A stretch of 62,094 nucleotides of DNA, counting the filler, from Sphacelaria rigidula (taxonomy: Eukaryota): assembly GCA_964200075.2 (NCBI GenBank). It is 5 parts of 5 records of this genome, joined end to end, with 100 filler letters (N's around TTAATTAATTAA, not from the genome) between each part and the next. Parts side by side here need not be neighbours in the genome. Positions count along the whole stretch, not along the records: positions 24,881 to 37,218 come from CAXNAA020003877.1; 4 more parts are not named here. One strand, written 5' to 3'. Below the pieces are notes generated by a model. The model did not search any database. It was not told where the DNA came from and was given only the letters and a program-made list of their open reading frames with translations. Made by a program: the position numbers and the translations under genes. How positions within the stretch are numbered: the first letter of the stretch is position 1; every line of letters begins with the position of its first letter. Below, piece after piece: positions 12,341-49,756 of this stretch.

Positions 12341-12440
12341 NNNNNNNNNNNNNNNNNNNNNNNNNNNNNNNNNNNNNNNNNNNNTTAATTAATTAANNNN
12401 NNNNNNNNNNNNNNNNNNNNNNNNNNNNNNNNNNNNNNNN
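12341..12440. other. Artificial contig spacer (N44-TTAATTAATTAA-N44)
   Basis: 100-nt linker with stop codons in all six frames. Confidence 0.98.
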
Positions 12441-13169
12441 TTTTGTGGGGGGGGGGGGTGGGTTGGTTTGGCTTGCATTATCCGTTGGTGGGGGGGGGCG
12501 GTGGTGAGTCTTCGTGTGGGGGGGGGGGGGGGGGGGGTGGCGGTTCCATGCCGTGGACCCGCTTCCGACGATCCAAAAAAATGAGAGCATGAAAAAAGGT
12601 ACGTTGGAGAAGAGAAAAAAAAAACGCGGCGTGTTTCCCCCTCGAAAATAGAGGGCTGGCGGATACTGCCACCCTGGTATAACTTCCTCTCACAACGGTC
12701 CGTGAGGATTCCGGCATAAGCGTTTTCCGGTGCTCGCAGGTTGAGTTACGAGCGGAATGGGGAGATACCGCGATATAATCCCGGAAGTATGTTCAAAATG
12801 CGGAGGAGATGTACCAGCAGAATCGGAGGCGTTATTTTTCCGAACTTTTTTTCGACGGGTTGTTCCGAGAAATTGCCACGTTAGTCCCGCCGGAAACTGA
12901 ACTGCGACCACGAGAAAAACGCTAACGTGCGTCACAACACAACACCCCCCACGAGTACAACGGTGTTCATTTCCGAGACATCAGAATCCGCCTCAAATAG
13001 CCTTTTTCTTGGATTCGAAAAAAAAAACACGATGCGGGAGGGTCAACAAGGCACTTTCCCCAGTGTTTTTCGTTCCGCAAGCAGCGGCTCAAGGTTTCTT
13101 GCAAAAAGGCACAGAATTTGGTGTGAAACAATGGCAGCAACCAACAAGCGAACGATCAACCGTGCTCAC

Positions 13170-14947
13170 CCTGAACGCGACGCCGAGGATGCTTTCGCGG
13201 GACAAGTTGGACACGCGGCTGCCGTCCACTACGACGGACTCCCTGACTTGTCCCCACAGATCCACCGATAGAAGATGTTGGTACGGCGATTCCTCCAGTC
13301 GACCAGCCCATAACAAGCTACCCATCAACTCCTGTTCGACATGAAACATTTCGAGCAAGGTTTGGGTCGAGTCTAGTCAGGCCTGGTTTGATCTGAGTTG
13401 GCGATACTTCGGCTTGATCTCCTCAAACAATCCGCTGAAGTTGTTTGCTGGGTTTGACCTTCAGTCTCACTTGGTCCGGCTCGGATTTGGTTCGGCACGT
13501 ACTGGTTCGATTCAATCTAGTTCGGATTAATTGATTTTTTTCTTCTGTTTCTTCGTATCTTCAGCGAGTGTTTCAGTTTTGATTTTCGTGGGTACGTCTG
13601 TCATGAGACCACGGCTGGACCCCCCTGGGGGGCCAGTTGAAGTGCGACAAACAATCAATCGATCAATCAACAACAACGATCGTGCTTCAGTTACTCCAAG
13701 TCTCCCGCGCCACCTCAAAAGCAAGTGCGACCTGCAATCTACACTCCAAAAGAGAAGAGAGACTGGGGAAAAGACGCCGATATATTGATATACTGAAATA
13801 TGGATAAATCGATATATCGATCAAGTGAGTGAGTGAGTGGTTGTCGAGCCTCAACTGATCCCGAAGGAATCCAGCCATGGTATGGTCATTATCCACACGA
13901 TAGATGCACCCTAGAAAATGAACGAGATAGAAAGACTTGCTGAAGAAAAGTGAAAAAAAACAGGCAGACTACGAGAAATAAAAGAAGAGAAAAGAAAAGA
14001 AAAAGTTGGAGCAAAAGAAAAAATAAAGACAAGGACGAAATAAAAGCAACTAGACATGACCGGCCTCCGCCAACAAGATTTTGGTGGAGAAGGTCTTGAG
14101 TCGAAAACCACCCTTCTACCAAGAAATGAAGAAAAAAAAGCATGTTAACAGATTGCGGCCCATCTATTTCGACCTCGCGATTTTCGGGTTTGAGGATCTT
14201 ACCCACGTACCCTACGGAAGCGTCCAAACCCTGAATCAGACTCAATACAACTAGCAACAGGCGCGTGCATACAAGCAACTGGCATGGCCCGCCGAAAAAG
14301 TCGTACTCAAGGATGCACATGACAATTATTTAAATTTACCGGTGGGAAAAACCACGATCATAATTTAGCTACCAATCTTGCACGACACCAGGGTCAGCCT
14401 TTTTTCTTCCATTTTTTACAGGAATTCCAAAATATCTGACGCTCGCACTGGAGGCAACTCCGGTGTACACCTTCTCGTCAGTTGGACCATCCGTACGATA
14501 GAGATAATACCATCCGTACTAACGATCAAACACGTGTCCTGACCTGTATCTCCCGCATGTGGGCGGGGGCGAGAGCAGCAAATCGCTGCTTCGCAAAGAT
14601 TACCGCCTCATGTCGCTTCTCCGGCCCGGCCCCCTATTTTGTGCAGATTGCAGGGAAAGCATAGTAAGAACAGCAGTACCAGAAACCATCAGCAATACAT
14701 CCACCCTCAACAGCAACAAACAACAACAACAACAATACAAGGCCATAACATCTAGCAACAGTCCCGACATAGCAAGAAACGAGTAACAAGAAATACCAAC
14801 AATTAAACACACACAGGCACACACATATTTCATCTACTGTATCTGCATGGAACTTGGAGTTGCGCAAGAAACCGACACCCGTTTTTTCTCTCCCCTGTTT
14901 TCTTTTTCCAACAAGAATACTGTGTTCGCCAGTGGTATGTGTAAAAC

Positions 14948-14986
<39 letters not shown>

Positions 14987-17900
14987 CCCCCCCTCACAAC
15001 AGGGGTTCTCGTACCTGAAGAAAGCAAAGGAAGCGTAAGCGTGCCAGCTGGAAGTCCAGAGAGCTACCCACACCCTCAAGCGCAGTTCGTCGCTTTTCGA
15101 CCCACCTGCTTCGATCGTGAGCAGCAGTAAAATGATAGACTTGAGTTGCATTGAGATGAATTCTCGACAAAATAGCTAATATTGAATCAAAATGGAGTAA
15201 ATTGTAAACAAATATCGAAAGTGCATTCCTCGCGACAGTAATAAAACCTATACTCACGTAGCACGTACGTCTACATTATGTACGACTATATATGTACCTC
15301 CTCTTGTGCCATCAGTCTGAAAACTAGTGTTTGTGTGATCCTTTAACCGTGTCCGATTTGGTCGTCGTTTCTTTGGTGGGTTCTTGACTGTTTTTTCTAG
15401 TTAAAATAATGTTTGTTTTACTGTTGGTGCTTGAACCATGCGGCCGAACGGCCGAGAATAAATCAGTCGGGCCAAAAATGGTCGTATTCCGCCCCTTTGG
15501 CCCATCGAGCCCTTGGGCACCCTCAACTGGCCCGGCGGAATAGACAGCGCAACCTCCACCGCCATTGCAATGCGGCGGCCCAATGATAGCTCGCCGTCCT
15601 TAGGGCGGGATGGAGAGGTACTTGGGGGCACGTCCATCGCTTGTGTTGTCTGTGGGCTAAGTTTGGGGCAGTGAACATGAAATCTTATAAAAAAATATCT
15701 TATGATTCTCCAAAAAAAATTCATTAAATTCTTAGACATCAGTTTCACGTTCTGAAAAAAAAAATCATTTCTGCCCTCAATATTGAACGACTCACGAGGT
15801 GACCGGTTTTGAATATTCGGTACTTTTCGCTCGATGGAGCCAATTCTGATCGTTTTTGTAAACAAATCAAGAGAATGAAAAAAACGGAAAATCTACCTTT
15901 CCATTGCGCTAGAGCCAAACAACTGTGGTTTCTAGACCAATGACGGTCAATAACACTCTCCTGATGAAACGAGGTAATTACTCCGCATCACTCCGACAAC
16001 ACTGACTTGAGGATTGAGTCCTGAGCATGACCTGTCTATGCTCTCAATATCTCTCGACTCTAGCACTTTCGAGTGCTAAAGAAGAACAACGTGTGGGTAC
16101 TTTTCTTTTATCCGATTATAAACTCGCCGAGTTGTTCCGCCGAGTACTATATTTTCCGGTACAGACACTACCGTGACTTCACCAGCCCCTCCCCCCACAA
16201 GGCAGACTGTGACTTGGATAATGAACCTACTCCGATTCATTACGCTCGTACTGTATCTGACCCCTATCCTGTACGGGACAGAGGGGGGAGGGAGACGTGT
16301 TCTGGCACTGGACGCTGCGGGGCGATTCCATCATTTCTTGCCTTATTATAAGAAGGCAGATCAGTGTCATGTACCGGAAACTAACCTCTTTTACAACCGA
16401 ACCCCCGCCGCCCGCCCGCCCGCCCCATTTTCATGTAGGGAACAATATATACATATATTGCGCATAGTGACAAATATAGTACTTGGGTATCATAAATATT
16501 TTCCCACATGCATGGACATGAAATCGAGAAAAGGCCGTTTTTTTTCTGGTCAAGGGTATACACTTCAAGCACGCTGCACGCGCACCCTATAAGTACAATG
16601 GATGAATAGATCTCGTTCGATTTGATTTGGTGTGTGTCTCCGCTTTCACAGTTCTCCGTGAAGTACTTGGTGCGATAGCACCTCGCCCGGAAGAATAGGG
16701 TGACGCGGGATTTCTCAAGTGGTCCAGAACTTCGTAAACGTGGGACAGCTCATGCGCTACCTCAAACAACAAATCGAAGAGGACCCCCAGATCCGTTGTC
16801 CAAAAACACGCAATACGTGACAGCGGGGGGTTCGAGAAGTCAAAGCGTTACCTTCGCGCTACTCCGCCTGCTCGGCGTCCAGCGCTGCAGGGAGCAAATA
16901 CGGGGTAAACGGGGGCCAAACAAGCTAGCTCATAATCCGGACCAGTACGCTAGTCAGGAGTAATACCCAGGTAGGTCATGAGTTTTCTGAGGTGCGGGAC
17001 CTTGCTCATGACCACATCATGAAGAAGAAACATGAACATTTGCATATATATATATATACATACATGTAAATGCCACCATAGATTGACCGGTAGAGTGACG
17101 TCAGATGGCCGTCCAGAACCGTTGTCCTGGCCGGGATTACACAGATAGAGTCAGAACCGTTCCTGGAATTCCTCGGAGGAATACCTCGAAGGGAACATTC
17201 CTCGGATGAAGGCGGGGTATCTTTGCTATGTAAATTCAGCCCAGCTGGCTCGCCCACACGACACAACCCGGTGTGTACTCCGCACCAAACAGCTGAAGAA
17301 GAGACCAACGCCTTGTAAAACCTATAAGGGGCTTATCCCTTCCATAAATATGTGAATATATATATATACAAGTAAGGTATGCGATCCGTCGACCCTTCGA
17401 CCAATCAGCGCGGATTATCTGTTGAAGTGATATCACTTCTACTCAAGCAGAGAGCACTAGTGTAGGACTCGCCTGGCCACCGAAAGGGCTCACTAGTAAA
17501 TACAACAATGCACACCTCTCTGCCGGAACGAGATTTTTCTTCTTGAGTGCGTCTAGCACCGCGTGCATTTCCACCAGCTGGGCCGATGTTTCGGGTGATA
17601 TCGACGCCGAGGATTCCTGCATGCAGAACATGTCGGGAAGGGGGGGACGAACTCATTTGATGCTTGCCCTCGTCGTTGAACCACTGACCACGCATCCCTT
17701 TCGAGACGGAGCACCGTTCGTACTCCTTATAGAGACACCTCCAACATCCCGGCGCTCATTACGTTTCTTCCGTACATTACACAAAACCATTTTCATATCG
17801 TATCCTCGTCCTATTTCGCAGTCTTCGGCCATCATCCATCTCCTGGTATAGCCATCGTTTTCTCCACACGTCTAGTGCACCAAACGATTTCATGCCACCT

Positions 17901-19615
17901 TCGTTCACGTCCCGCATTTCCCTCTGTAGCAAATCTCGTTCCTCCTTGTATAGTTCACATTTTGCCATTACATTAGTTCCGCCCTCTATTGCTTTGACGC
18001 AGGGGCAATTATGTTCATCTACTTCCTCCTCCACTCGACAACTGGTTTACATCTTCCTTCTTTGTGGCAGGTCCAGGTCCTCCATCCGGAATCGCAGTTT
18101 CAAGTTTCTCGCCGCGTCCATTGAGTCATGCAAATATGTTTACATCCCGATCCCCTCTCTCAACCCCCCGTATATGTCCAGGTGTTCTTCCTCGTCTATT
18201 TTGCGCCTGAGCGCTTCTTTTTCCCTTTCTTTCATCATGTCTAGTCGGGAGGGGGGTGGTGGTGGTGGGGGGGTGTACTCATGATCATGCATGCCATAGT
18301 CATAAGACTAGCGACCTCGCATCCCTACGAAGCCGGGATGGAGCGCGCCGGATTTCGCCGGACCAGGCTCGCACTCAAGCATCAAGCGCGAAGCGCCGTG
18401 GTATGTTCGGCGAGTCGCATGAAGGGTGAGCTGCATTTTGCCAATATTAATCGGCCCGAAGCCTACTGGTTCATCTTGTATTCGGATGACAGCCAACAAT
18501 GAGTTGCTTCATTTTCTCGTATCGCCACTTGTAGAGACAGCCACGGCTTAAACACTGCCTCATGGGTGCCTGACCACTCAAACACTACGTGGTACGACGA
18601 TCCCATTGTGCGGAGTTGATGTTCGCCCACACCGCACAACATGATCTAGCTCGACTACCATCATGGTTACCGCAAAAAAAAAAACGCAGGCGCGCAAAAA
18701 AAATGATGACCTGGTTGCCTAGCTTACGCAGTGAGTGGCGTGTTTCATAGCGTCATCGCCAACCGACGCCAGTCCCATCGGGGTAGGGTGGGGTGAAAAA
18801 TAATAATAAACAGCAAAAACGAAGAGGTGTAATCACAGCAGCTCGTCATCATGGACCCTAAAAGAATATCCAAGGTGTACACATACGTGCGTCCGCACCA
18901 TACTCTCGATCGACGAAGGTTGCAGTCATATAAAAACTAAATTGCTCCAGTAGAACTTGAAAAATAAATATGTACATTTGTTCACGAAAACGATTGGAAA
19001 GGCTTCAACCCGGGCAAAATCACCTCAGGGTCAGGATCTGGGGGTGGGTAGACGCAGGACCCTCGAGGACCGGTCGGCCCGTTAGTCGTTCAATATTAAG
19101 GGCAGAAACGACGATCTCTTCGGAATATGAAGCGAATGCCTAGTATCTCCCGATCCCCACCAAAGTTTGGGATCAAATATTCACTGGGATCAGCGGTGGC
19201 ACGCAAAAAAAAAACTATTGAAAAACCGTCAACTACGAAAAAAAATAATAATAATAATAATACAGTTGGAAACGACTACATAGCAGATCGGACCCATGCC
19301 AAGCGAATTTGACCGCACGGTGGAGAGACCCCACGCTTCAGAGTACCGCACGGTAGTCGGATCCCTCCCACTGCAGATACAGAACGTGTGTGAATGTATT
19401 GTATAACCCAAATCCATCAGCTGGGAATATTTTTCAGACGGGGATAAACTTAACGGAACATGAGTTGTTCTGTTCGACCCCCCTTTTTTTTCCTGTCCCC
19501 TCTTTTTCTCAAAGCGTGTTTCAGTTTCGTTTTTCTTCGGGACGTCCATCAAGAGACCACGGCTGGACCCGTGGGGGGTCAGTTGAAGTGCGACAATCAA
19601 TCAAAATCAATCAAG

Positions 19616-19654
<39 letters not shown>

Positions 19655-22600
19655 ATCGTCGCACATTCACTGATTCATGCCCCCGGGATCCAGCCGCGGC
19701 CACGTGATAAACCTACCCGAGATAGAAAAACGAAATGGAAACACTCGCTGAAGAAAGGTGAATAATACAGAGAAGGCGGACCAGAAACAAAAGAGTAGAC
19801 TCAAAAGCAAAAAAAAAAGAGGTGAAATATCGAAACTGCATTACTTTAGCTGTATAACAGGAGTACCGACTGAGCGAGGAAGGTATTACACGTTGGTTTG
19901 TTGAGCAGTTTTTATGGATCACTATTACACGTACTGTACCAAAAAAGCTACGAAAAAAGGACGAACCGCAAGAACTGAACACTACATTTACAGCGAGCGA
20001 AGAAACTGAGAATATATGTGTGTGTATATATATATATATATGTATATATGCGGTCTTGATGAAGTACACGTGATGATGGCCACTGCTTCCTTCCACCCGC
20101 CTCCCGTTTTTTCGTGCTTGTTTCCACTACCCTATTTCATGTATCTCTTCTCAGATATAATCATTTCCGACTTTTGTTGTCATACCTCTGCGAACTTCGC
20201 GGCAGATCGAAAGGAACCGCTGTGGTAGAGATGAGTGATGATCGACGTTTGTAAGGCCTCCTCAGGCAAGTTGGGTGTCCGTCGTACGCTCTCCACATCG
20301 GCTCCGAATTGCTGCAAAAAAAAAGTAGATACAACCACCACCGCACGACAGATAAAGATATATATATATATATATTCATCTATAAAAAGTACATTGGACG
20401 GACACTATGTAGACTTCGATGAACTCTTGAAAAATACAAAGCACACAAATACACACACATAGTCACGACAGGCACACGATCGAAAGCACGACAAGGGCGA
20501 GGTGGAGTGGGGGGGAGGGGAGGGAGTTACTCATTATCTTGCATGCCGCAATCACAAGACTTTTGACCCCGCATTTCTACAAAGCCGGGACGGCGCATGC
20601 TGGGACGGCGCATGCCGGGTTCTCGCCGGACCAGGCTCGCAACCAATCACCAACCGCAAAGTGCCGTCATTTGTTTGGCGAGTCGCATGGTCAGCTGCAT
20701 CCAGCCAAGATATTTCGGCCCGAAGCGTCCTGATTCATTACCTTGCATATGGATGACAGCCTCGGGTTACACTGACGGCCTCATGACTTTCTTTCCATTC
20801 AAATACTGCGTTTACAATCACCTCCTTTGCGCGGAGTTGAGGTTTCCCCTCCCCGCACAAAATGATCCAGCTCGAACAGCATCATGGTTACAGCAAAAAA
20901 AAACGCAAGCGCGCACAAAAAAATCGGCATCCTGGTTGCCTAGCTTACGGAGTAAGTGGCGTATTTCACAGCGTCGTTGCCAACCGACGCCAACCCTCAG
21001 AAATAATGGGGAGGGGGGAGGCGTACTCATTTGTTGCTCGCCCTAGTCGTTTGACCATTGACCACGCATCCCTTTCGAGACGGAGCACCGTATCTACTCC
21101 TAATAGAGGTATCTCAAACTCGGCTCCCGGTATCCTGGTTTATTCGCTGGCTCTGAGTTGTGTACTATTTTTTCAAGTGAAAGTGATCGCGAGTGATCGG
21201 TTCATAGGAAGACCTAACCAGGCGGTCAAAGGGTCTCATCATCTGATGAATCGCCATCAACTTCGCTCGAAAAAATAGAACAAAACAAACCAGGATACCG
21301 AGAGTCGAGTTTGAGATACCTCTAGTAGAAACACCTCCAACACCTGGGCGCTCACTACACTTCTTCCATACATTACACAAAAACCATTTCCATATCTTAT
21401 CCCCGTCCTGTTTCGCCATCTGTGGCCACCATCTGTCTCCTAGAACAGCCATCATTTTCTCGCTACTGTCTAATGCATCAAACGATTCCATGCCACCTTC
21501 GTTCAAGTCCCGCATTTCCTCCTCTAGCATGTCCCGTTCCTCCTTGTATACTTCACATTCTGCAACTACATGACTTCTGCTCTCTATTACTTCGCCATAG
21601 ATGCAGTTCTGTACATCTACTTCCTCCTCCACACGACTACTGGTATATCTCGGAGAGGGGAGGGGGGGAGGGGGGTTCACCACTTCAGGGTCCCCCACAT
21701 GTCCACTACGTGTGTGTGTATACGTTCGTGTGCTGTCACATCTTCCCTCACACCATGGCAAATCACGAATGCAGGCATCCAAAAAATGACAACCCCAGAA
21801 AGCTCACCAACGCACTCCAGAGCAAACACAACCAAACCCCCTCTTGCATTGTTTCCAAGCAGAGTTTATCTTCCTGTCACAAGCCGCCATCATCCAACAC
21901 GAGCATCTCAGTTTTATTTCTTTTCTGAGCGTATAGAGCATGACTTGACGTAATGACATCCCCCAATTCCGAAATAGAACAAAAAGAGAAAATATGTTTT
22001 CGAGGCTATAATTACACTCATATATCTCCACATTTCAATACAGCTTCCTCCTTTTCAATACATCGAAAATCGACAACGAAATTCAACCAACATTTCTGAA
22101 AGCATCAAACTCAACAACGATGAACACCCATATTCACAACCATCGGATCATGAAACCATCTAGTATTCAACTGTATCATGGGATATATCGTTAAAGTATA
22201 CTAGCGGAAAACACTTTTACTTGGGAGACGTTCTGTCAAGTAGTCTGCGGGCTGGCTCGCACGTTATCCCCAAAATTTACTCATTCGCAAATGTTTACGC
22301 CCATTCTTGGAGTTAGGCTTTGAACATTTGGACACATACACTATGGGACATTACAAACTTTAAATAGACGGGGTCTTTCGAGGTTTCTTTCTACGCTAAT
22401 TATCGGGGGCCCCAGGGTTTCGGGGGATTTGGGAGGATCGCATGACATTTGGGCTTTGTGCGATATAATGAAAATAAAATAAGCAAATTCCTAACTACCC
22501 GGTTGTAGTATGAAAACGTATTTTGACGTTGAAACGAGAAAACTGCATCAAGTTTTCGAGTCACGCGACAAGACTTTGTACAAATGCTCCTTGGACTACT

Positions 22601-24648: not shown

Positions 24649-24780
24649 TTTCCTCCTCTATTCTTTATTTTCTATTATTTTTCTGTCTCGTGCAGGGGGG
24701 GGGGGGGGGGGGGGGGGGGGGTTAGTGTTAATTTTTTTTTTTTTTTTTTTCAGGTTTGTGTGGGGGTGGGGGGGGGGGTG

Positions 24781-24880
24781 NNNNNNNNNNNNNNNNNNNN
24801 NNNNNNNNNNNNNNNNNNNNNNNNTTAATTAATTAANNNNNNNNNNNNNNNNNNNNNNNNNNNNNNNNNNNNNNNNNNNN
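24781..24880. other. Artificial contig spacer
   Basis: N44-TTAATTAATTAA-N44. Confidence 0.98.
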
Positions 24881-24914
24881 GCATGCATGATCATGAGTAC
24901 ACTCCCCCCCCCCC
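24881..24914 (+). mobile_element. 3' tip of the C-tract-ended SINE-like element at a contig edge
   Basis: gcatgcatgatcatgagtacact followed by a run of C. Confidence 0.7.
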
Positions 24915-31800: not shown

Positions 31801-33708
31801 GCACCGAGATTCGAACCCCATGACCCAACCGTCTTCATATTTTTGAACGTAAATAACACTGCAGAGTAAATTGATACCCGCCGACCTTGCACACACTTGT
31901 TCTTCCATTCTACCATGCAGGAACGCATGAGGGCATAATCATGGACGTACGAACTCAACAGATATCACTGCAACGGCAACGAACAAATAGATACCGCGAA
32001 ATTGCAACGCCTGTTCACCACCCCCTGTGAATGCACAGTCGGGTAGGCGTTTTTCGAAATAAATGCAGTTGACCAAACCACGGCACCATTTGAGACGGCG
32101 GTCTTTACGGTGGCCTACACTATTTATTATAACGGAAAAATTGGGTCGTTACCTACCCCTTTCCCTGTCGAATCATTTCTCAATCGTTTTATTTTTTCGG
32201 GGGGGGGGGGGGGGGGGGTTTTTGGGACGTTTTTACTATTTTTTTTCCCTTAAACAGGAAAAATCGACATTCCAAGTTCTTAACAAAGTGGGANNNNNNN
32301 NNNTGCGTCCGCCCCTCCCGCGTTGGGGTGTTGCCGTTTTTTGTTGTTGTTTGTTGTGGGGGGGGGGGGGGGGGGGGGGGTAGTTGTGCGACGTTTGACC
32401 CAGTTTTTTACCCTCAAACAGGAAATATCACCATTCCAAGTCCTGAACACTTTGCATCACCCCACCGAGAGGGTTCTAGCCCACTTCTCCGATTCGCTTG
32501 GCTCCGAGGTTCCAAGAATGGCCTGTGACCAATATCAATGCGTAGTGGAGTGTTGTGACACATGTACGTAGTGAAGTTCTGTTGTACTCATTGTTTGGGT
32601 AGATATACATGAGTTCATGAGAGGTTCATTGCTGCAAGCTGGTGGCTCGCCGAAGCGAGAAGGAACTCATGCGATTTTCGGGTATAATGAAGTATCTAAT
32701 CAGCGCGAGTTGGCGGCTTGCCAGGCGTCTCGAAGTTGATTTCAGATTTCGCCGGATCCTTGGCGGAAGGATTCAGGCAAGGATCGGTGGCCTTTAGAGA
32801 AGCGCTATTCTCCCACATGCCAACCGAACCAGGCAGTGACTGTGGTACGGCAGAAGGATCAGGATGCGCGAGGTACACGAAGGTGAGCGAGTAATATGTG
32901 GATAAGTGCCAAGGAATACTTTGGATACAGAGGACGAAAGCCGAACCCAGCGCAGAGCCGCAAGTTGTACCGTTGACCCGCAAAAACACTGCACGGGAAC
33001 ACGCTAGGAAATATGCTAACATGTGTGCAACTCCCCTGCTTCCAACACTGCGACCATTCTTCTACGGCCACCAATCCGTCTTTGTACAAATACGAGGATT
33101 TCAGTCCGTCTACAGGCGATATTCTCCCGTGAATTGATTCTTCGAATCCCAGTCCGTTGGGCAATGTGTTTCAGCTAGTTGTGAGGAAACCAGATCAATT
33201 CTCCGATTCCCTGGAAGTTCACTTTTGGTTAATCACCCCTCTTCTACTCAGATTGGGGTTTGGGGGAGATGCGGGAGTGTCCCGATCTGAACAGAAAGGT
33301 GATGAACCAAGAGTCAACTTCCAGAGGATCGGCGAATTGATCTGGTTTACTCACAGCTAGCCAAAACACATTGCCCAACGGACTGGGGTCCGAAAAATCA
33401 ATCCACAGGAGAAAATCGGCTGTAGACGGGCTGAAACCCTCATATTTGTACAAATACGGATTGGTTGCCGGAAAAAATGGTTCAAGACTCAGAAAACCGA
33501 ATCACCCAATGCCCACCTCCTCGTGCTTCCATTTTTTTTTCGCGAATGTCGCAACTTCTAGGTTGCGCAGACCCCCAGTACACGGAGGAAACGGACCGTC
33601 GTCGACCAAGAGATCGTCAGAGACCTTCGCCACTTAACCTCGAGAAAACCCTTGCCTTCGCCACCTGTTCAACGCGAACGCATGAAGGCGCGTTTGATCA
33701 TCTGGTGA
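28871..33708 (+). CDS. Hypothetical multi-exon gene (candidate exons 28871-28946, 29332-~29520, 29947-30023, 30491-30608, 32704-32882, 33562-33708)
   Basis: Several phase-compatible GT-AG joins (TMKK-AVGAGGRVVSKRLFNDYLEYL; RQRNEIM-VRGEH; ARYTK-VAQTPSTRRKR...LIIW*). The full structure is not resolved and no family was recognised. Confidence 0.35.
30063..30469. repeat. Diverged ~195-bp direct duplication (30063-30255 and 30281-30469)
   Basis: tattcaatatta.gaa.cgtg...cccagctgca.cagaggccaatttca...agcgggttc...tcatgct occurs twice. Confidence 0.85.
31512..31830 (-). mobile_element. tRNA-derived SINE, 5'-truncated
   Basis: Minus-strand B-box ggttcgaatctcgg is followed by a body homologous to 195-450. 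Confidence 0.7.
32385..32540 (+). repeat. Dispersed repeat with an inverted copy at ~36572-36725
   Basis: ccctcaaacagg.aatatc...caccccaccga...ccgattcgcttgg.tccgaggt. Its reverse complement lies near 36600-36700. Confidence 0.65.
33053..33481. mobile_element. 430-bp hairpin/MITE-like element
   Basis: The left ~200 bp is the near reverse complement of the right ~200 bp (ccaatccgtctttgtacaaata...tatttgtacaaatacggattgg). Confidence 0.85.
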
Positions 33709-34141
33709 AGGAAATCTCGTCGTCATGGGACACATCGCGGGTACTGAGTGTCGATGAGCTGCATCTTCCTTATTGTATATCTAACGTGGTACAGCAGTGC
33801 AAGCACTCGCGCGGCAATCCATTCCTTTCTTTGCCCATCTCCACGCGGTTGAGCCGCTTGGCCGCAGCCTTGGCCACATGATAAGGTGAACCCTTAGTCA
33901 CACCGTTGGCGGGATCATTGGATATACAGTAGCCCCAGTCAACTGTGTCAGGGTCTTGGAGTAGAAGGACGGAAGTACACTATTGTACATCCCAGCCGCT
34001 AGTTCGGATTACCAACTTTACACTTTTTGTTTGAAAGTATAGCCTTCTTTCAGAGTACAGTACAGCTTGATGTATGTTTTGAAGACAAGGTTGCCCTCCC
34101 ATCCGGCGTGAAACTGGACCCCACCTCCCTCAATGTGCCTG

Positions 34142-36200
34142 AAAAACATCAAAGCGGGAGGATGGTGGATCAACAGAATTGCCGAGAGAGTTCACCAGAG
34201 ATAAAGTAGAGGAGTGTGTAGCTAAACTCACGACAGAAAGGTGGCAAGGGCAAACCAAATAGTGAATGGATTCGTAAAGTACGGGAGAGAGGGAACGATT
34301 ACCATGATGGTCATGCTGTAAGTTGGATATCGGAAAACGATTACACATCCAGGAGGTGGAGAGGAGGAGTAGAGGTCAATATTTTCGAGAAAGGAGACAA
34401 GGCTGACCCAGGGAATGATAGAATGGGAACAATGCTAGAGAAGGGAGAAGAAAACAGCGAGGGGCAAGCAGGTTCTAGACCAAACCGTAGCTGTGTAGAC
34501 CACGTGTACACATTAGGTAAGATTGTTCAAGATAGGAAAGACGCCAGGCTGACAATGTACTGTTTCTCTCTGGACGTCCAAAAGGCCTATGACGCAGTAT
34601 GGAGAAATGGGCTGTGTAAAAAATTGTGAGAAAATGGGATCAGAGGAAATATATGGATAATGGTGGAGATAACAGAATGTGTGAAAACTGACATGATGCT
34701 AGACGGGGAAATCTTGAAATCTTTTGATATTTTACAAGGAGTTCCACAAGAATGTACGTTATGACCCACTTTATTCAAGGTATCCATGACTGATCTGATG
34801 AGAGCAATAGAAGCAGCAAAGCGAGGAGTCAAGGTGGGGTAAGATACGATATCAGCGTTGATCTTCGCGGATGATTTCGTGGGAATATCGCAAGCACCAG
34901 GAAGATCGCAGAAGCAAGTACAAAAGGCGCTAGAATACACCAGGAAATAGAGAGTGACAGCGAACTTTAACAAATGCGCGGTACCTGTATGTAACGAAGA
35001 TAAAATAACCCGTTGGAGTTCAAATGGAAGTGGGGAGAGGATGAGCTGCCGATCGTAGACCAGTATACATACCTTGGCGTAGAGATATTAGAAAAAAACT
35101 GTTCTTGGGATGCACACACGGATGAAGCAATAGGAAAGGGTACGGCATAGATAGGCAGGATGGACGTGGACGTGGTCCTCAGAGACTCGCACCTAGATAC
35201 TAGGATTAAGAGATGTATCCCAATCAACGTGATCGTATCAAAGCCAGAATATGCAGGATAAGTATGGGAGGGGAACGCGAAGTTGATTAAGAGGTTAGAA
35301 ACAGTACAGATGACAGCAGCTAAGAAGATACTTGGATGCTTGAAAACGACGAGTAATACAGCAATGAGAGCAGGGTAGGGAATGTACCCTCTTAGAACAA
35401 ACAGAGATATGATAAAATTGACGTGGCAATATAGCGTAAAGAACATGCAGAGAAAGAGATTGCCAGCTATAATTGATGGGGCTGTATGTAAAAAATGACG
35501 AAAGGGCAGGCTGTAATAAGGTGGGATAGAGTAGTCGAGAAAGTATGGAAGGAAATAGGAGGAAACGAAGACGAACTACTGTCCATAGGTGACGGTTCGG
35601 GGTACAAACAAATGTAAGAGAGATTATAGAATTGAGGGGAAAAGGAACGCTCAGACGCAACGCAGGCGAGGAAGAACATCTGACGGTATACGGAGAGCTG
35701 AGAGAGGGGGTGAGGATGAAAACCTATCTGCATGACCCAATGGACGTGGCGGACAAAACAAATCTGCGATCTCGGGTGGGGGACCTGGACCTGCCAGAAA
35801 GAAAAGAGAAATACCAGTAAATTAGTCGAGAGGAGGAGGAAGTAGATGCACATAATTTCCCCTGTGGCAAAGCAATACGGGAGAGGAGAACTCACATGGT
35901 GGCAGCATGTCAACTACTAGAGGGGGAAATGCGGGACGTGAACGAAGGTGGCATGAAATCGTTTGATGTGTCAGACAGTAGGGGGGAAACGATGGCTATT
36001 ATAGGAGATAAATGGTGGACACAAAAGGCGGATCAGGACGGGGATAAGATATGTAAACGGTTTTTGTGTAGTGAGTGGAAGAAACGTAATGGGTACTGAA
36101 ATGTTGGAGGTATCCCTATTAGGAGTAGGAACGGTGCTCCGTCTCGAAAGGGATGCGTGGTCAATGGTCAAACGACCAAGGCAAGCAACAAATGAGCACG
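34142..36200 (+). mobile_element. Decayed 5'-truncated non-LTR retrotransposon (RT plus C-terminal Cys/His knuckle; RTE/RTEX-like by inference)
   Basis: RT motifs EGQAGSRPNRSCVDHVYTL, LDVQKAYDAVWR, QGVPQECTL, IFADDF and YTYLGV, with many stops and frameshifts. It ends aaatgagcacg followed by C10. Confidence 0.92.
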
Positions 36201-37218
36201 CCCCCCCCCCAATTTACCTGCAGATTTGCAAATTCCCTGATGTGCTGTCGTTATTTCGTTTCCGTACCGAAATCTACCCAATCAACCCACTAGCCCACTC
36301 AACCCAACCCAACCTAATCCTACCAACCAAACCAGCCAACCCGACCTCACAAAAGCAGTACGTTCAAGCCGAAAGGCACAGACCCACCCACACACCGAAC
36401 CAACCCATGAATCCTCATTGGCGCTTGTTTCGTCACAGATGTATTCGTAGCATTTTTAACGAAAAACGAATATTATACTTTAGATATGAATCGATGTAAG
36501 CACCATGTGGAAATATTGAAATATCAACACAGAAACCTGCAGACAGCGCATTTTTTCATGTCCAGTTAGTCAGATTTTTGTTCAGAAGCTTTTGTCGAGA
36601 CCTCGGGACCAAGCGAATCGGAAGAGTTGGTTAGACTTTTTTCGGTGGGGTGATTCAAAGCGTCTAAGACATGTGATGACGATATTCCCTGTTTGAGGGC
36701 AATAAAAAAACGTATTAAATGTCCCAAGACTGGAAGCCCCCCGTCCCCCGGAAAAAAAACAAAACATAAGAAACGGTCTAAGGGGTGTTATCAACCGATA
36801 TCTCCATCTATATTTACTTTTCCCGAATAATATTAATATTTTCTCGATTTCTCCGAAAATATAGCGTCGATTTTCCGACGCTAGAGTTTCGGAGAAATCT
36901 GACGTCAGTCTGAAAATGCACACAATCACACGACAGCAGCCAGTGTACGAAAGTTGGAATATAATATATATATATATATATACACTTCCTCTGTCCCATC
37001 AGTCTGTATCGTTATGGACTTTTAATCGTGTGGGTATTTCAATGCTCACGATCATGCTACAGTTGGGCTCGTTAGAGAGATAACGTGCAGACGAAGCTGA
37101 CTGAGAAAAGAAAAAAGAAAAAAAATGTTTTCAATACTAAAATCATATCAAAATATACCCCATTTTGGCCCTTTTGGGTCCACTTATACCCCGATGTTGA
37201 CCGATTTTGGACGTTTTG

Positions 37219-37318
37219 NNNNNNNNNNNNNNNNNNNNNNNNNNNNNNNNNNNNNNNNNNNNTTAATTAATTAANNNNNNNNNNNNNNNNNNNNNNNNNN
37301 NNNNNNNNNNNNNNNNNN
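37219..37318. other. Artificial contig spacer
   Basis: N44-TTAATTAATTAA-N44. Confidence 0.98.
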
Positions 37319-38343
37319 CCGCTTGAGCGCACCCTCCACGTCTTTCTTCGTTTTTCTTTTTTTTGTTATCTTTTCCCCCCCCCCCCCCCCCCCCCTGCGT
37401 CTCGAGTTTCTTTTGTTTTCCTATTTTGTTCACTTTGGTAATGTTTATGTTCATCTTGTGACTGCGGCTGGATCCCTGTCGGATCATTTGGATGTGCGAT
37501 AATGAACCGCGTCGATCTGTCGGGCAAGATGTGTCCGGCTGATCGAGCGCGCCCATTTCGCTCGCGGACAAACATGGTCTATCCGCCAATGCGGACAAAC
37601 GTGGTGTAGCCGCCAATGAGCTGATCACATTGCTTGAAAGTGAGGTTTACTCGAGTTTGCCAAAGTTTCACGGTTGATGCATTTCGGGTTTTTAAAACCC
37701 TCCCCTAGAATCGGGTATATTCCAACCGTGGAAAGTCGACGATGAACTCGCGTACTGTGGTCAGCCCACCACTGGTGTTGCTGAAACGTTTTTTTCCAGC
37801 TGCTTATGGCGCCACAGGTTGTTGATGAAGTCTTCTGATCTCTTCCTCGCTTGTGTACCTCGAGGTATCATGTGTCTTCCTGCAGCGAAAAGACCAAAAA
37901 ACAGATTCAAGCTCATGTATTGGAGGTGCATGTATTTCAGCTTGGAAACATTACCGCATGCACCACAGCAGAAACATACCCCCTCGGCCCCCAGGAAAGA
38001 ACGATGATATCGTGTGCGCGATCGCCCGATAACCTCTTTTATCCGACCACGGTTCTGAATGGAAGGGCCAGTGAGATAAAATAAGTTCAGGGTCACTCTA
38101 GCGTCCACGACTGCAAACGTCTGTACAGGCGAGTGAAACTGCAATCCCCCCCCTCTCACCCGAAACCAGCCTCAAAAGTGTCATGATGAAAGTGGCCATG
38201 TAGCGCACGGCAGCTGTTTTCAGACTGTGCAAAGCGCCTCACATGGGCGATATTAACGACAACGATCCCAAGCGTCGGAGTTCCCAGCGGGTTGTGCTCG
38301 GCTTTTGTCTTCTCTATTAATATGTAGACGTTGCCTTCTCAAA

Positions 38344-49170: not shown

Positions 49171-49515
49171 GTGAGGGTTGAAAGCACAGCTTGCTGTCAA
49201 ATCGGTTGTTCATACTACGACCCTCGAGCTTTGTTGTGCTGGCGTGGTATCTTTCTCCTTCCAAGATTCGTTTCTGAAGGTCTGATTATCCTGGGCCTAC
49301 AGTATTGGGGATGCGTTCCCTTGCAAAGGTAGGGCTTGGGTCCGGAGAAGGTCTACCGTCGGTTTTTTTTTGTGTTACGAAATATCACCTATAAAAGTGC
49401 TGCTGTTCGTTGTACATCCGGCGGGTCGACTCACGCTTAACATTGAAGAATTCAATAGACGTTGTCTTGCTCTCGAGCTAGTTTCTGGGAGAAGGGCGGG
49501 GGGGGGAGGGGGGGG

Positions 49516-49656
49516 GTACTCATGATCATGTGTGCCATGATGATGAGACCATTGACCTCGCATCCCTACAAGACCGGGACGGAGCACGCCGGGTTTTCGC
49601 CGGACCAGGCTCGAAATCAATCACCAAGCGCGAAGCGCCGGGGTGGGTTCGGCGAG
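49516..49656 (-). mobile_element. 3' part of the C-tract-ended SINE-like element, cut by the contig end
   Basis: A G-tract is followed by gtactcatgatcatg...cattgacctcgcatcccta...cggagcacgccggg...cggaccaggctcg. Confidence 0.8.
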
Positions 49657-49756
49657 NNNNNNNNNNNNNNNNNNNNNNNNNNNNNNNNNNNNNNNNNNNN
49701 TTAATTAATTAANNNNNNNNNNNNNNNNNNNNNNNNNNNNNNNNNNNNNNNNNNNN
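49657..49756. other. Artificial contig spacer
   Basis: N44-TTAATTAATTAA-N44. Confidence 0.98.

Follow-up and report, generated by a model that had tools for sequence, protein, structure and literature searches.

Mammalian L1 and Alu end in a poly(A) tail and use a TTTT/AA nick, and the R1 and Tx1 groups include Waldo, Mino, Kibi, Koshi and Dong. The latter five are long interspersed elements (LINEs) of the apurinic/apyrimidinic endonuclease (APE) type with specificity for microsatellites, namely ACAY (Waldo), AC (Mino), TC (Kibi), TTC (Koshi) and TAA (Dong), as described in the available portion of PMC3812793. For RTE-related pairs of a LINE and a short interspersed element (SINE), the first base of the target site duplication (TSD) was found to correlate with the microsatellite-like tail at the 3' end (Nishiyama & Ohshima 2018, available portion of PMC6007223). 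The most abundant transposable elements (TEs) of Ectocarpus are, according to the available portion of PMC12477816, the RTE-X elements RTEX-1/RTEX-2_Ec32 and a partner of ~600 bp with the same 3' end, RTEX-N1_Ec32. Here, a stretch of 62,094 nucleotides of DNA from Sphacelaria rigidula (assembly GCA_964200075.2; referred to as the window) was analyzed, which harbors copies of an abundant LINE and of a shorter partner, designated famB, both of which end in runs of C.

Like L1 and Alu, the Sphacelaria system has a homopolymer tail, TSDs that open with the tail base, a non-autonomous partner and new copies in old tails, but its tail is C instead of A, and the partner harbors ~75 nt of specific LINE 3' sequence (the 'stringent' type) and not just the homopolymer. 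A C-run cannot stem from ordinary polyadenylation. In common with the RTE-related pairs it comprises a LINE and a short retroposon with a common 3' end, a TSD start that fits the tail repeat and a tail that may pick the priming site; however, those pairs have short microsatellites as tails and a T-stretch ~10 nt upstream of the TSD, whereas here the C-run itself starts the TSD (available portion of PMC6007223). As in Waldo, Mino, Kibi, Koshi and Dong, the LINE is of the APE type and has one simple repeat on both sides, yet the targets given in the available portion of PMC3812793 are di- to tetranucleotides, with no mononucleotide G/C target listed, whereas the tract found here is C/G. In addition, the copy number is far higher than that of these five elements, and a SINE-like partner is present. 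Ectocarpus RTEX-1/2 are likewise brown-algal LINEs with APE and reverse transcriptase (RT) domains and a very high copy number, and in a comparison by description famB (~500 bp) resembles RTEX-N1_Ec32 (~600 bp) in combining the LINE 3' end with a 5' part of unexplained origin (available portion of PMC12477816).

The LINE and famB end in C-runs instead of poly(A)

The window consists of five parts of 12,338-12,340 bases with N44-TTAATTAATTAA-N44 linkers between them, in the manner of a pseudo-chromosome made up of unplaced contigs, and features are not to be read across a join. Three LINE copies and four copies of famB were delimited, the limits of the LINE copies being set by alignment to an intact relative, L060:

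34147-36200, plus strand: LINE1, 5'-truncated and decayed with many stops; contains an RT domain, a CCHC motif and a C-terminal, tail-proximal block; ends ...AAATGAGCACG
17648-18242, minus strand: LINE2, 5'-truncated; ends ...AAATGAGTTCG
21022-21651, minus strand: LINE3, 5'-truncated; split by a miniature inverted-repeat transposable element (MITE) at ~21100-21328
18274-18779, minus strand: famB1; similar to the LINE 3' end over its last ~75 nt (GGGATGCGAGGTC...ATGAGTACA)
20527-20998, minus strand: famB2, the most diverged copy with 70% identity to famB1; ends ...AATGAGTAA, followed by CTCCCTCCCCTC7 (20509-20526)
49517-49656, minus strand: famB3, truncated at the contig end, with just the 3' part present; followed by C9TC9 (49498-49516)
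24881-24903, plus strand: famB4, last 23 nt only, at the contig start; followed by C11 (to 24914)

The three LINE copies begin at L060-sense positions 1655, 3180 and 3369 and have one common 3' end. This variable 5' truncation with a fixed 3' end and flanking TSDs of 11-18 nt is seen in all three. Homology of LINE1 to L060 begins at 34147, and the origin of the preceding 'aaaaa' (34142-34146) is uncertain. The read-through translation of LINE1 matches RVT_1 (PF00078, E=1.5e-16), and by tblastn the copy matches residues 655-1360 of P0005, a full-length relative. Just upstream of the 3' end, a block of 31 nt is identical across the three copies, for which a shuffle control expects 0 matches, and elsewhere they are 74-76% identical. 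All of them terminate in AAATGAG(C/T)(A/T)CG and then continue with C10 (LINE1), TC7 (LINE2) or CCTC6TC4 (LINE3), and poly(A) follows in none. The first-pass annotation of this DNA had listed three LINE copies with this terminus and a C-run, never poly(A), behind it; the copies proved real, with limits that had to be shifted slightly to those given above, the terminus holds for all three and for three further copies from metagenomes, and the junction strings cited there are present in the sequence exactly as written.

Contigs from four of nine sequencing runs (X1-X4), representing at most three samples from two studies, with X1 and X2 from one sample, cover part of the window and were placed on 17400-21900 at 80% likeness; for the loose ends of these contigs, the best six per run were considered. 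Behind position 21650, loose ends go on as LINE sequence in 63, 44 and 51 contigs (X1, X3 and X4), which confirms the truncation point of LINE3. The MITE-like insert inside LINE3 (~230 bp, 21100-21328) has inverted ends of 45 nt that are 91% complementary; its run-contig depth is far below that of the LINE, yet high, indicating that it is repeated too.

A metagenome scan with one 23-nt LINE word returned three marine contigs (L060-L062), each of which terminates in CAAATGA(G/C)TACG followed by C8, C10GC5 or CCTC7TCCTCCC. All three loci are cut by a contig end on their 5' side and provide no extra 5' junction. L060 bears an intact open reading frame (ORF) of 1242 aa with Exo_endo_phos and RVT_1 domains. 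Two related proteins, P0005 (1360 aa) and P0006 (1328 aa), have RVT_1 preceded by an endonuclease of the APE type (PF03372, PF14529; values for P0005: PF03372 E=3.4e-12, PF14529 E=3.3e-07, PF00078 E=9.8e-31); this endonuclease part is missing from the three 5'-truncated window copies. The best solved relatives of the RT are L1 ORF2p (6.6e-21) and R2 proteins. Both P0005 and P0006 carry a C-x-C-x8-H-x4-C motif and a conserved end, ...NGAPSRKGCVVNGQMTKASNK, and the order within the ORF is N-terminal domain, APE endonuclease, RT, CCHC motif and the conserved ...NGAPSRKGCVVNGQ.TKASNK end. The element is an APE-type, single-ORF retrotransposon of the non-LTR type (lacking long terminal repeats, LTRs). 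Its stop codon is the TGA within AAATGAGTACG, 5 nt ahead of the tail, so that almost no 3' untranslated region exists and the conserved 3' block of ~75 nt, the part that would be recognized by the RT, is coding sequence. Residues 1-165 of P0005, ahead of the endonuclease, are without a Pfam match and possibly have a role in RNA binding.

The closest named proteins are from Ectocarpus sp. CCAP 1310/34, among them P0012 (1927 aa), which is 71% identical over its last 455 aa and has the same ...ASNK end. The P0012 gene model joins Gypsy-type domains (PF17919, PF17917) and NADAR (PF08719) to the last 455 aa of the LINE ORF and is probably an annotation chimera across nested TEs. Viral contigs gave 0 matches to words specific for the LINE and famB, and a protein-profile scan of them gave no relative; the degenerate 3'-end pattern had 57 chance matches in prokaryote genome contigs and two in viral contigs.

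famB is ~470-510 bp long and has no ORF. The 5' end of famB1 was placed by a drop in depth and by joints of run contigs at 18778-18783. LINE and famB have the last ~75 nt in common (blastn high-scoring segment pair, 54/70), and an alignment of six LINE and three famB 3' ends revealed the conserved motifs GGGATGCG(T/A)GGTC, GGCA.GCA and ATGAGTA. famB is thus a non-autonomous element with the specific 3' end of a LINE, as in stringent LINE/SINE pairs, and the LINE protein may well mobilize it. Across the whole window, neither Rfam at the gathering threshold nor ARAGORN gave a match, and hence none was obtained for the famB head.

Directly behind the 3' end, a C-run is present at all six LINE ends (three in the window, three from metagenomes) and all four famB ends, the latter reading C7ACCACCACCAC6, CTCCCTCCCCTC7, C9TC9 and C11 for famB1 to famB4. 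None of these ten ends carries poly(A), and an L1-type poly(A) element was therefore rejected. To quantify the C content, a C score was defined as the highest C count in any 10-nt window within 25 nt of a junction, with 200,000 random sites as background (P(>=7) = 0.043, P(>=8) = 0.012 and P(>=9) = 0.0048 per site). A score of at least 8 was reached within 25 nt 3' of the end at ten of ten ends (three LINE, four famB and three of famC, a further short repeat family described below), compared with 0.012 per site in the background.

The run contigs gave the same picture at much higher copy number. More than 100,000 contigs per run were placed on the 4.5 kb of 17400-21900, and hence both LINE and famB must be extremely abundant. 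Loose ends were found at 18267, on the edge of the C7 that follows famB1, in 769, 891, 776 and 450 contigs in X1-X4. Their consensus, on the plus strand, stops in 16, 14, 13 and 12 G, respectively, with no consensus beyond; together with the seven aligned G, this corresponds to a typical tail of ~19-23 C. A lack of C-run enrichment at junctions genome-wide had been named in the first-pass annotation as what would refute its proposal; with a poly(C) consensus found in 450-891 contigs per run, this refutation does not apply. LINE and famB thus end in a mononucleotide (C)n tail instead of poly(A), which is ~20 nt long in the contig consensus and decays to an interrupted C7-C10 in old copies.

Several contig edges adjoin G/C runs, as might be expected if the runs arose during sequencing or assembly, for instance as two-colour poly-G or as errors at contig ends. 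However, the runs also lie within contigs, show C on the element's sense strand in every case, whatever the strand of the assembly, and were seen again in three metagenome contigs and in the contigs of four runs. An artefact is therefore hardly credible and was rejected.

C-rich flanks and target site duplications

The following junction sequences were assigned to the LINE copies:

34119-34141, plus strand: 5' flank of LINE1, C-rich CCCCACCTCCCTC, then AATGTGCCTG; the 5' TSD copy is 34124-34141
36201-36220, plus strand: tail and 3' TSD copy of LINE1, merged; C10, then AATTTACCTG; the 3' TSD copy is 36203-36220
17632-17647, minus strand: tail and 3' TSD copy of LINE2, TC7TTCCCGAC
18243-18273, minus strand: spacer between famB1 and LINE2, C7ACCACCACCAC6TCCCGACT; serves both as famB1 tail and as LINE2 5' flank/TSD
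21007-21021, minus strand: tail and 3' TSD copy of LINE3, CCTC6TCCCC; 8 nt upstream of the famB2 start
21652-21675, minus strand: 5' flank of LINE3, C-rich CCCCCCTCCCCCCCTCCCC and TCTCC filler

A C-rich sequence was found on both sides of all five elements for which both junctions are readable. Upstream of the five readable 5' junctions the C scores are 7, 9, 9, 8 and 9, i.e. 7-9 C in 10 nt at sites where the background probability is 0.043 to 0.0048. Two of these 5' junctions are formed by the C-tail of a neighbor: LINE2 directly follows the tail of famB1, and famB2 starts 8 nt after the tail of LINE3. The candidate TSDs lie exactly at both junctions of each LINE copy, with 14/18 matches for LINE1 (CCTCCCTCAATGTGCCTG / CCCCCCCCAATTTACCTG), 12/13 for LINE2 (CCCCCCTCCCGAC / CCCCCTTCCCGAC; 5' copy at 18244-18256) and 11/11 for LINE3 (CCCCCCTCCCC, C-rich only). 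Within two of them the C-run is joined to unique sequence, AATGTGCCTG/AATTTACCTG in LINE1 and TCCCGAC/TCCCGAC in LINE2, which argues that the C-tract was in the target before insertion.

Such flanks have to be weighed against the possibility that (C)n is simply the element's own microsatellite-like tail, with no preference of insertion for C/G tracts, and that the flanks owe their C-richness to chance, a C-rich locale, or template switching that yielded chimeric or tandem copies. In line with an encoded tail, the first eight positions past ...CG are C, or a single T, in six of six LINE copies. Moreover, the 5' flanks contain 6-8 uninterrupted C, so that the ~20 C of the consensus tails exceed every 5'-flank run observed here and much of the run probably derives from the element, by way of an RNA tail or of slippage, rather than solely from the target. 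G/C runs are also frequent as such, with 21 runs of at least 8 in the window. On the other hand, this explanation does not account for five C-rich 5' flanks out of five, nor for TSDs of LINE1 and LINE2 that abut both junctions and include unique bases. Template-switch chimeras would leave a pure tail between two elements, whereas the TCCCGAC of the spacer between famB1 and LINE2 recurs 3' of LINE2 and thus marks the spacer as target sequence. A C-run followed by TCCCGA was in fact seen three times, 5' of famB1 (in a looser form), between famB1 and LINE2, and 3' of LINE2, as would result from two insertions in succession, each of which duplicated one target. We therefore regard a tail without target preference as rather unlikely.

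The long pure runs of C20-C27 in the window and the ~20 C of the contig consensus would also be in line with an enzymatic origin, in which either the nicked target receives untemplated G from the RT ahead of RNA copying or finished transcripts acquire a C-tail, so that the run is encoded by neither target nor donor. Some reverse transcriptases are known to add untemplated nucleotides, and we know of no nuclear C-tailing activity. Since such a tail leaves the C-rich 5' flanks and the TSDs containing the run unexplained, we consider this origin improbable.

Joints within run contigs are consistent with insertion into older tails. In the best-supported ones, the tail of famB is joined to the last 67 nt of the LINE, in 31, 36, 28 and 23 contigs (21087>18267) and in 26, 32, 19 and 24 contigs (17713>18267), and an arrangement of famB, C-run and famB (18576>18267) was found in 17, 20, 13 and 15 contigs; in one contig, a C-rich spacer of 23 nt joins a famB tail to the head of the next famB. 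These joints stem from multi-mapped short contigs, most of them with 'between: not known', and serve as supporting evidence only.

This limit on the joints and several further observations weigh against the model favored below. In a control with all 5x5 flank pairs, the true pairs scored 10, 11, 11, 9 and 9, and mismatched pairs scored 6-15, i.e. the TSD score alone cannot separate TSDs from general C-richness. Just five 5' junctions are readable, all of old copies (LINEs 74-76% identical), and two of the five flanks depend on the 3' tails of neighbors and are hence not independent. Of the TSDs, that of LINE3 and those of the two famB copies are ambiguous or consist of C only. A search within the window for paralogous empty sites, using the flanks of the five elements, found none. 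Among the best six loose ends per run, no G-consensus end was present at the famB 5' boundary, compared with hundreds at the 3' end, hinting weakly that the 5' side carries no duplicate of long C-runs. For the 3' ends, RNAalifold gave 14 pairs at -9.96 kcal/mol, of which 0/14 are compensatory, in a region that is also coding in the LINE. The LINE probably belongs to RTE-X, a placement judged by its Ectocarpus homologue and its fit to the description in the available portion of PMC12477816.

The first-pass annotation had proposed that this family nicks the G-rich strand of G/C homopolymer tracts and may prime on a C-ended RNA, a proposal that is supported in part. In its favor, all five 5' flanks are C-rich, two TSDs include unique bases and in two cases the insertion adjoins another element's C-tail; the TSDs as scored, however, cannot be told from general C-richness. 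That insertions sit at existing C/G tracts, often the tails of earlier copies, is thus partly shown.

A proposed model for G:C priming

Taken together, we favor, as the probable though by no means certain interpretation, an abundant APE-type LINE with a 3'-sharing partner, in which both carry (C)n tails, insert at G/C tracts and are copied after a G-run of the target has primed on the C-tail of the RNA. In such a model the endonuclease would nick the strand carrying the G-run, and the 3'-OH of the nicked run would pair with the C-run of the RNA, which itself could be a read-through copy of the tail of the donor. The RT would then begin at the G:C-paired end, with homopolymer slippage setting the length of the tail, and a second nick ~0-10 nt past the C-tract would yield TSDs of ~11-18 nt. 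Insertion at C/G tracts would make the TSDs begin with the C-run and would stack elements head to tail with C-runs in between. More tentatively, poly(C) may take the role that poly(A) has for L1 and Alu throughout, with a C-tail copied from the donor, a G-tract 3' end as primer and each insertion seeding the next G/C tract; we put this forward as a possibility that falls short of being likely.

With regard to earlier descriptions, the available portion of the main text of PMC12477816 mentions neither a (C)n tail nor a G/C-tract target, and its Fig. 1C ('terminal motifs') and Supplementary Material 3 may record a (C)n end; this Ectocarpus TE catalogue probably lists the LINE and famB families. 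Neither a C-tailed LINE nor a G/C-tract target turned up in full-text literature searches, in agreement with the earlier statement in the annotation that this specificity was not known to be described. As far as these searches reach, a C-tailed LINE/SINE-like system with G:C priming has not been described previously.

Pairing between tail and target is a central and debated step of target-primed reverse transcription, for which a natural C:G system would be an independent test, and the C-tailed system offers thousands of copies as well as intact ORFs to express. If the proposed priming is correct, the origin of many G/C homopolymer tracts in brown-algal genomes would be explained, and a self-reinforcing cycle would be behind much of the surplus of long G/C homopolymers as well as the contig breaks. 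These tracts are difficult to sequence and are able to fold into G-quadruplex and i-motif structures. TE annotation pipelines that seek poly(A) would overlook where the most abundant repeats of brown-algal genomes end.

Contig edges, unattached G/C runs and further repeats

It had also been suggested in the first-pass annotation that the family could explain why many contig edges are poly(G) or poly(C). A G/C run of at least 11 occurs no more than 60 nt away from four of the eight internal edges (runs at 12447, 24768, 24904 and 37375), which bears the suggestion out in part. Two contig edges cut copies of famB. Assembly breaks in very abundant repeats with homopolymer ends would explain these edges.

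Some long G/C runs adjoin no recognized element end. At the contig start 12447-12537, G12, G9 and G20 are spaced by 31 and 19 nt; at 24695-24778, a G27 lies 10 nt from a T19 (A19 in C orientation), with a G11 at the contig end; and a C21 at 37375-37395 is 56 nt from the contig start. These unattached runs could be the tails of families that are not repeated in the window, or very short truncated insertions.

The remaining features of the window are:

32219-32293, minus strand: famC, a third short repeat family
32381-32510, minus strand: famC
36600-36736, plus strand: famC
32294-32303: N10 gap
12341-12440, 24781-24880, 37219-37318 and 49657-49756: linkers

The famC copies have the pattern ...CCTGTTTRAGGG.AAAAAA...AAAYGTC.CA..., and their conserved part ends in C20, C23 and C6GTC5. 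An A-rich stretch follows the C-run in all three copies, and the C-run may thus be internal to an A-tailed element. Finally, an abundant short repeat was found at 19514-19664 and 13536-13670, with 79% identity between the two copies, a high run-contig depth and a near-palindrome, GGCTGGACCC(C)..GGGGGGYCAG.

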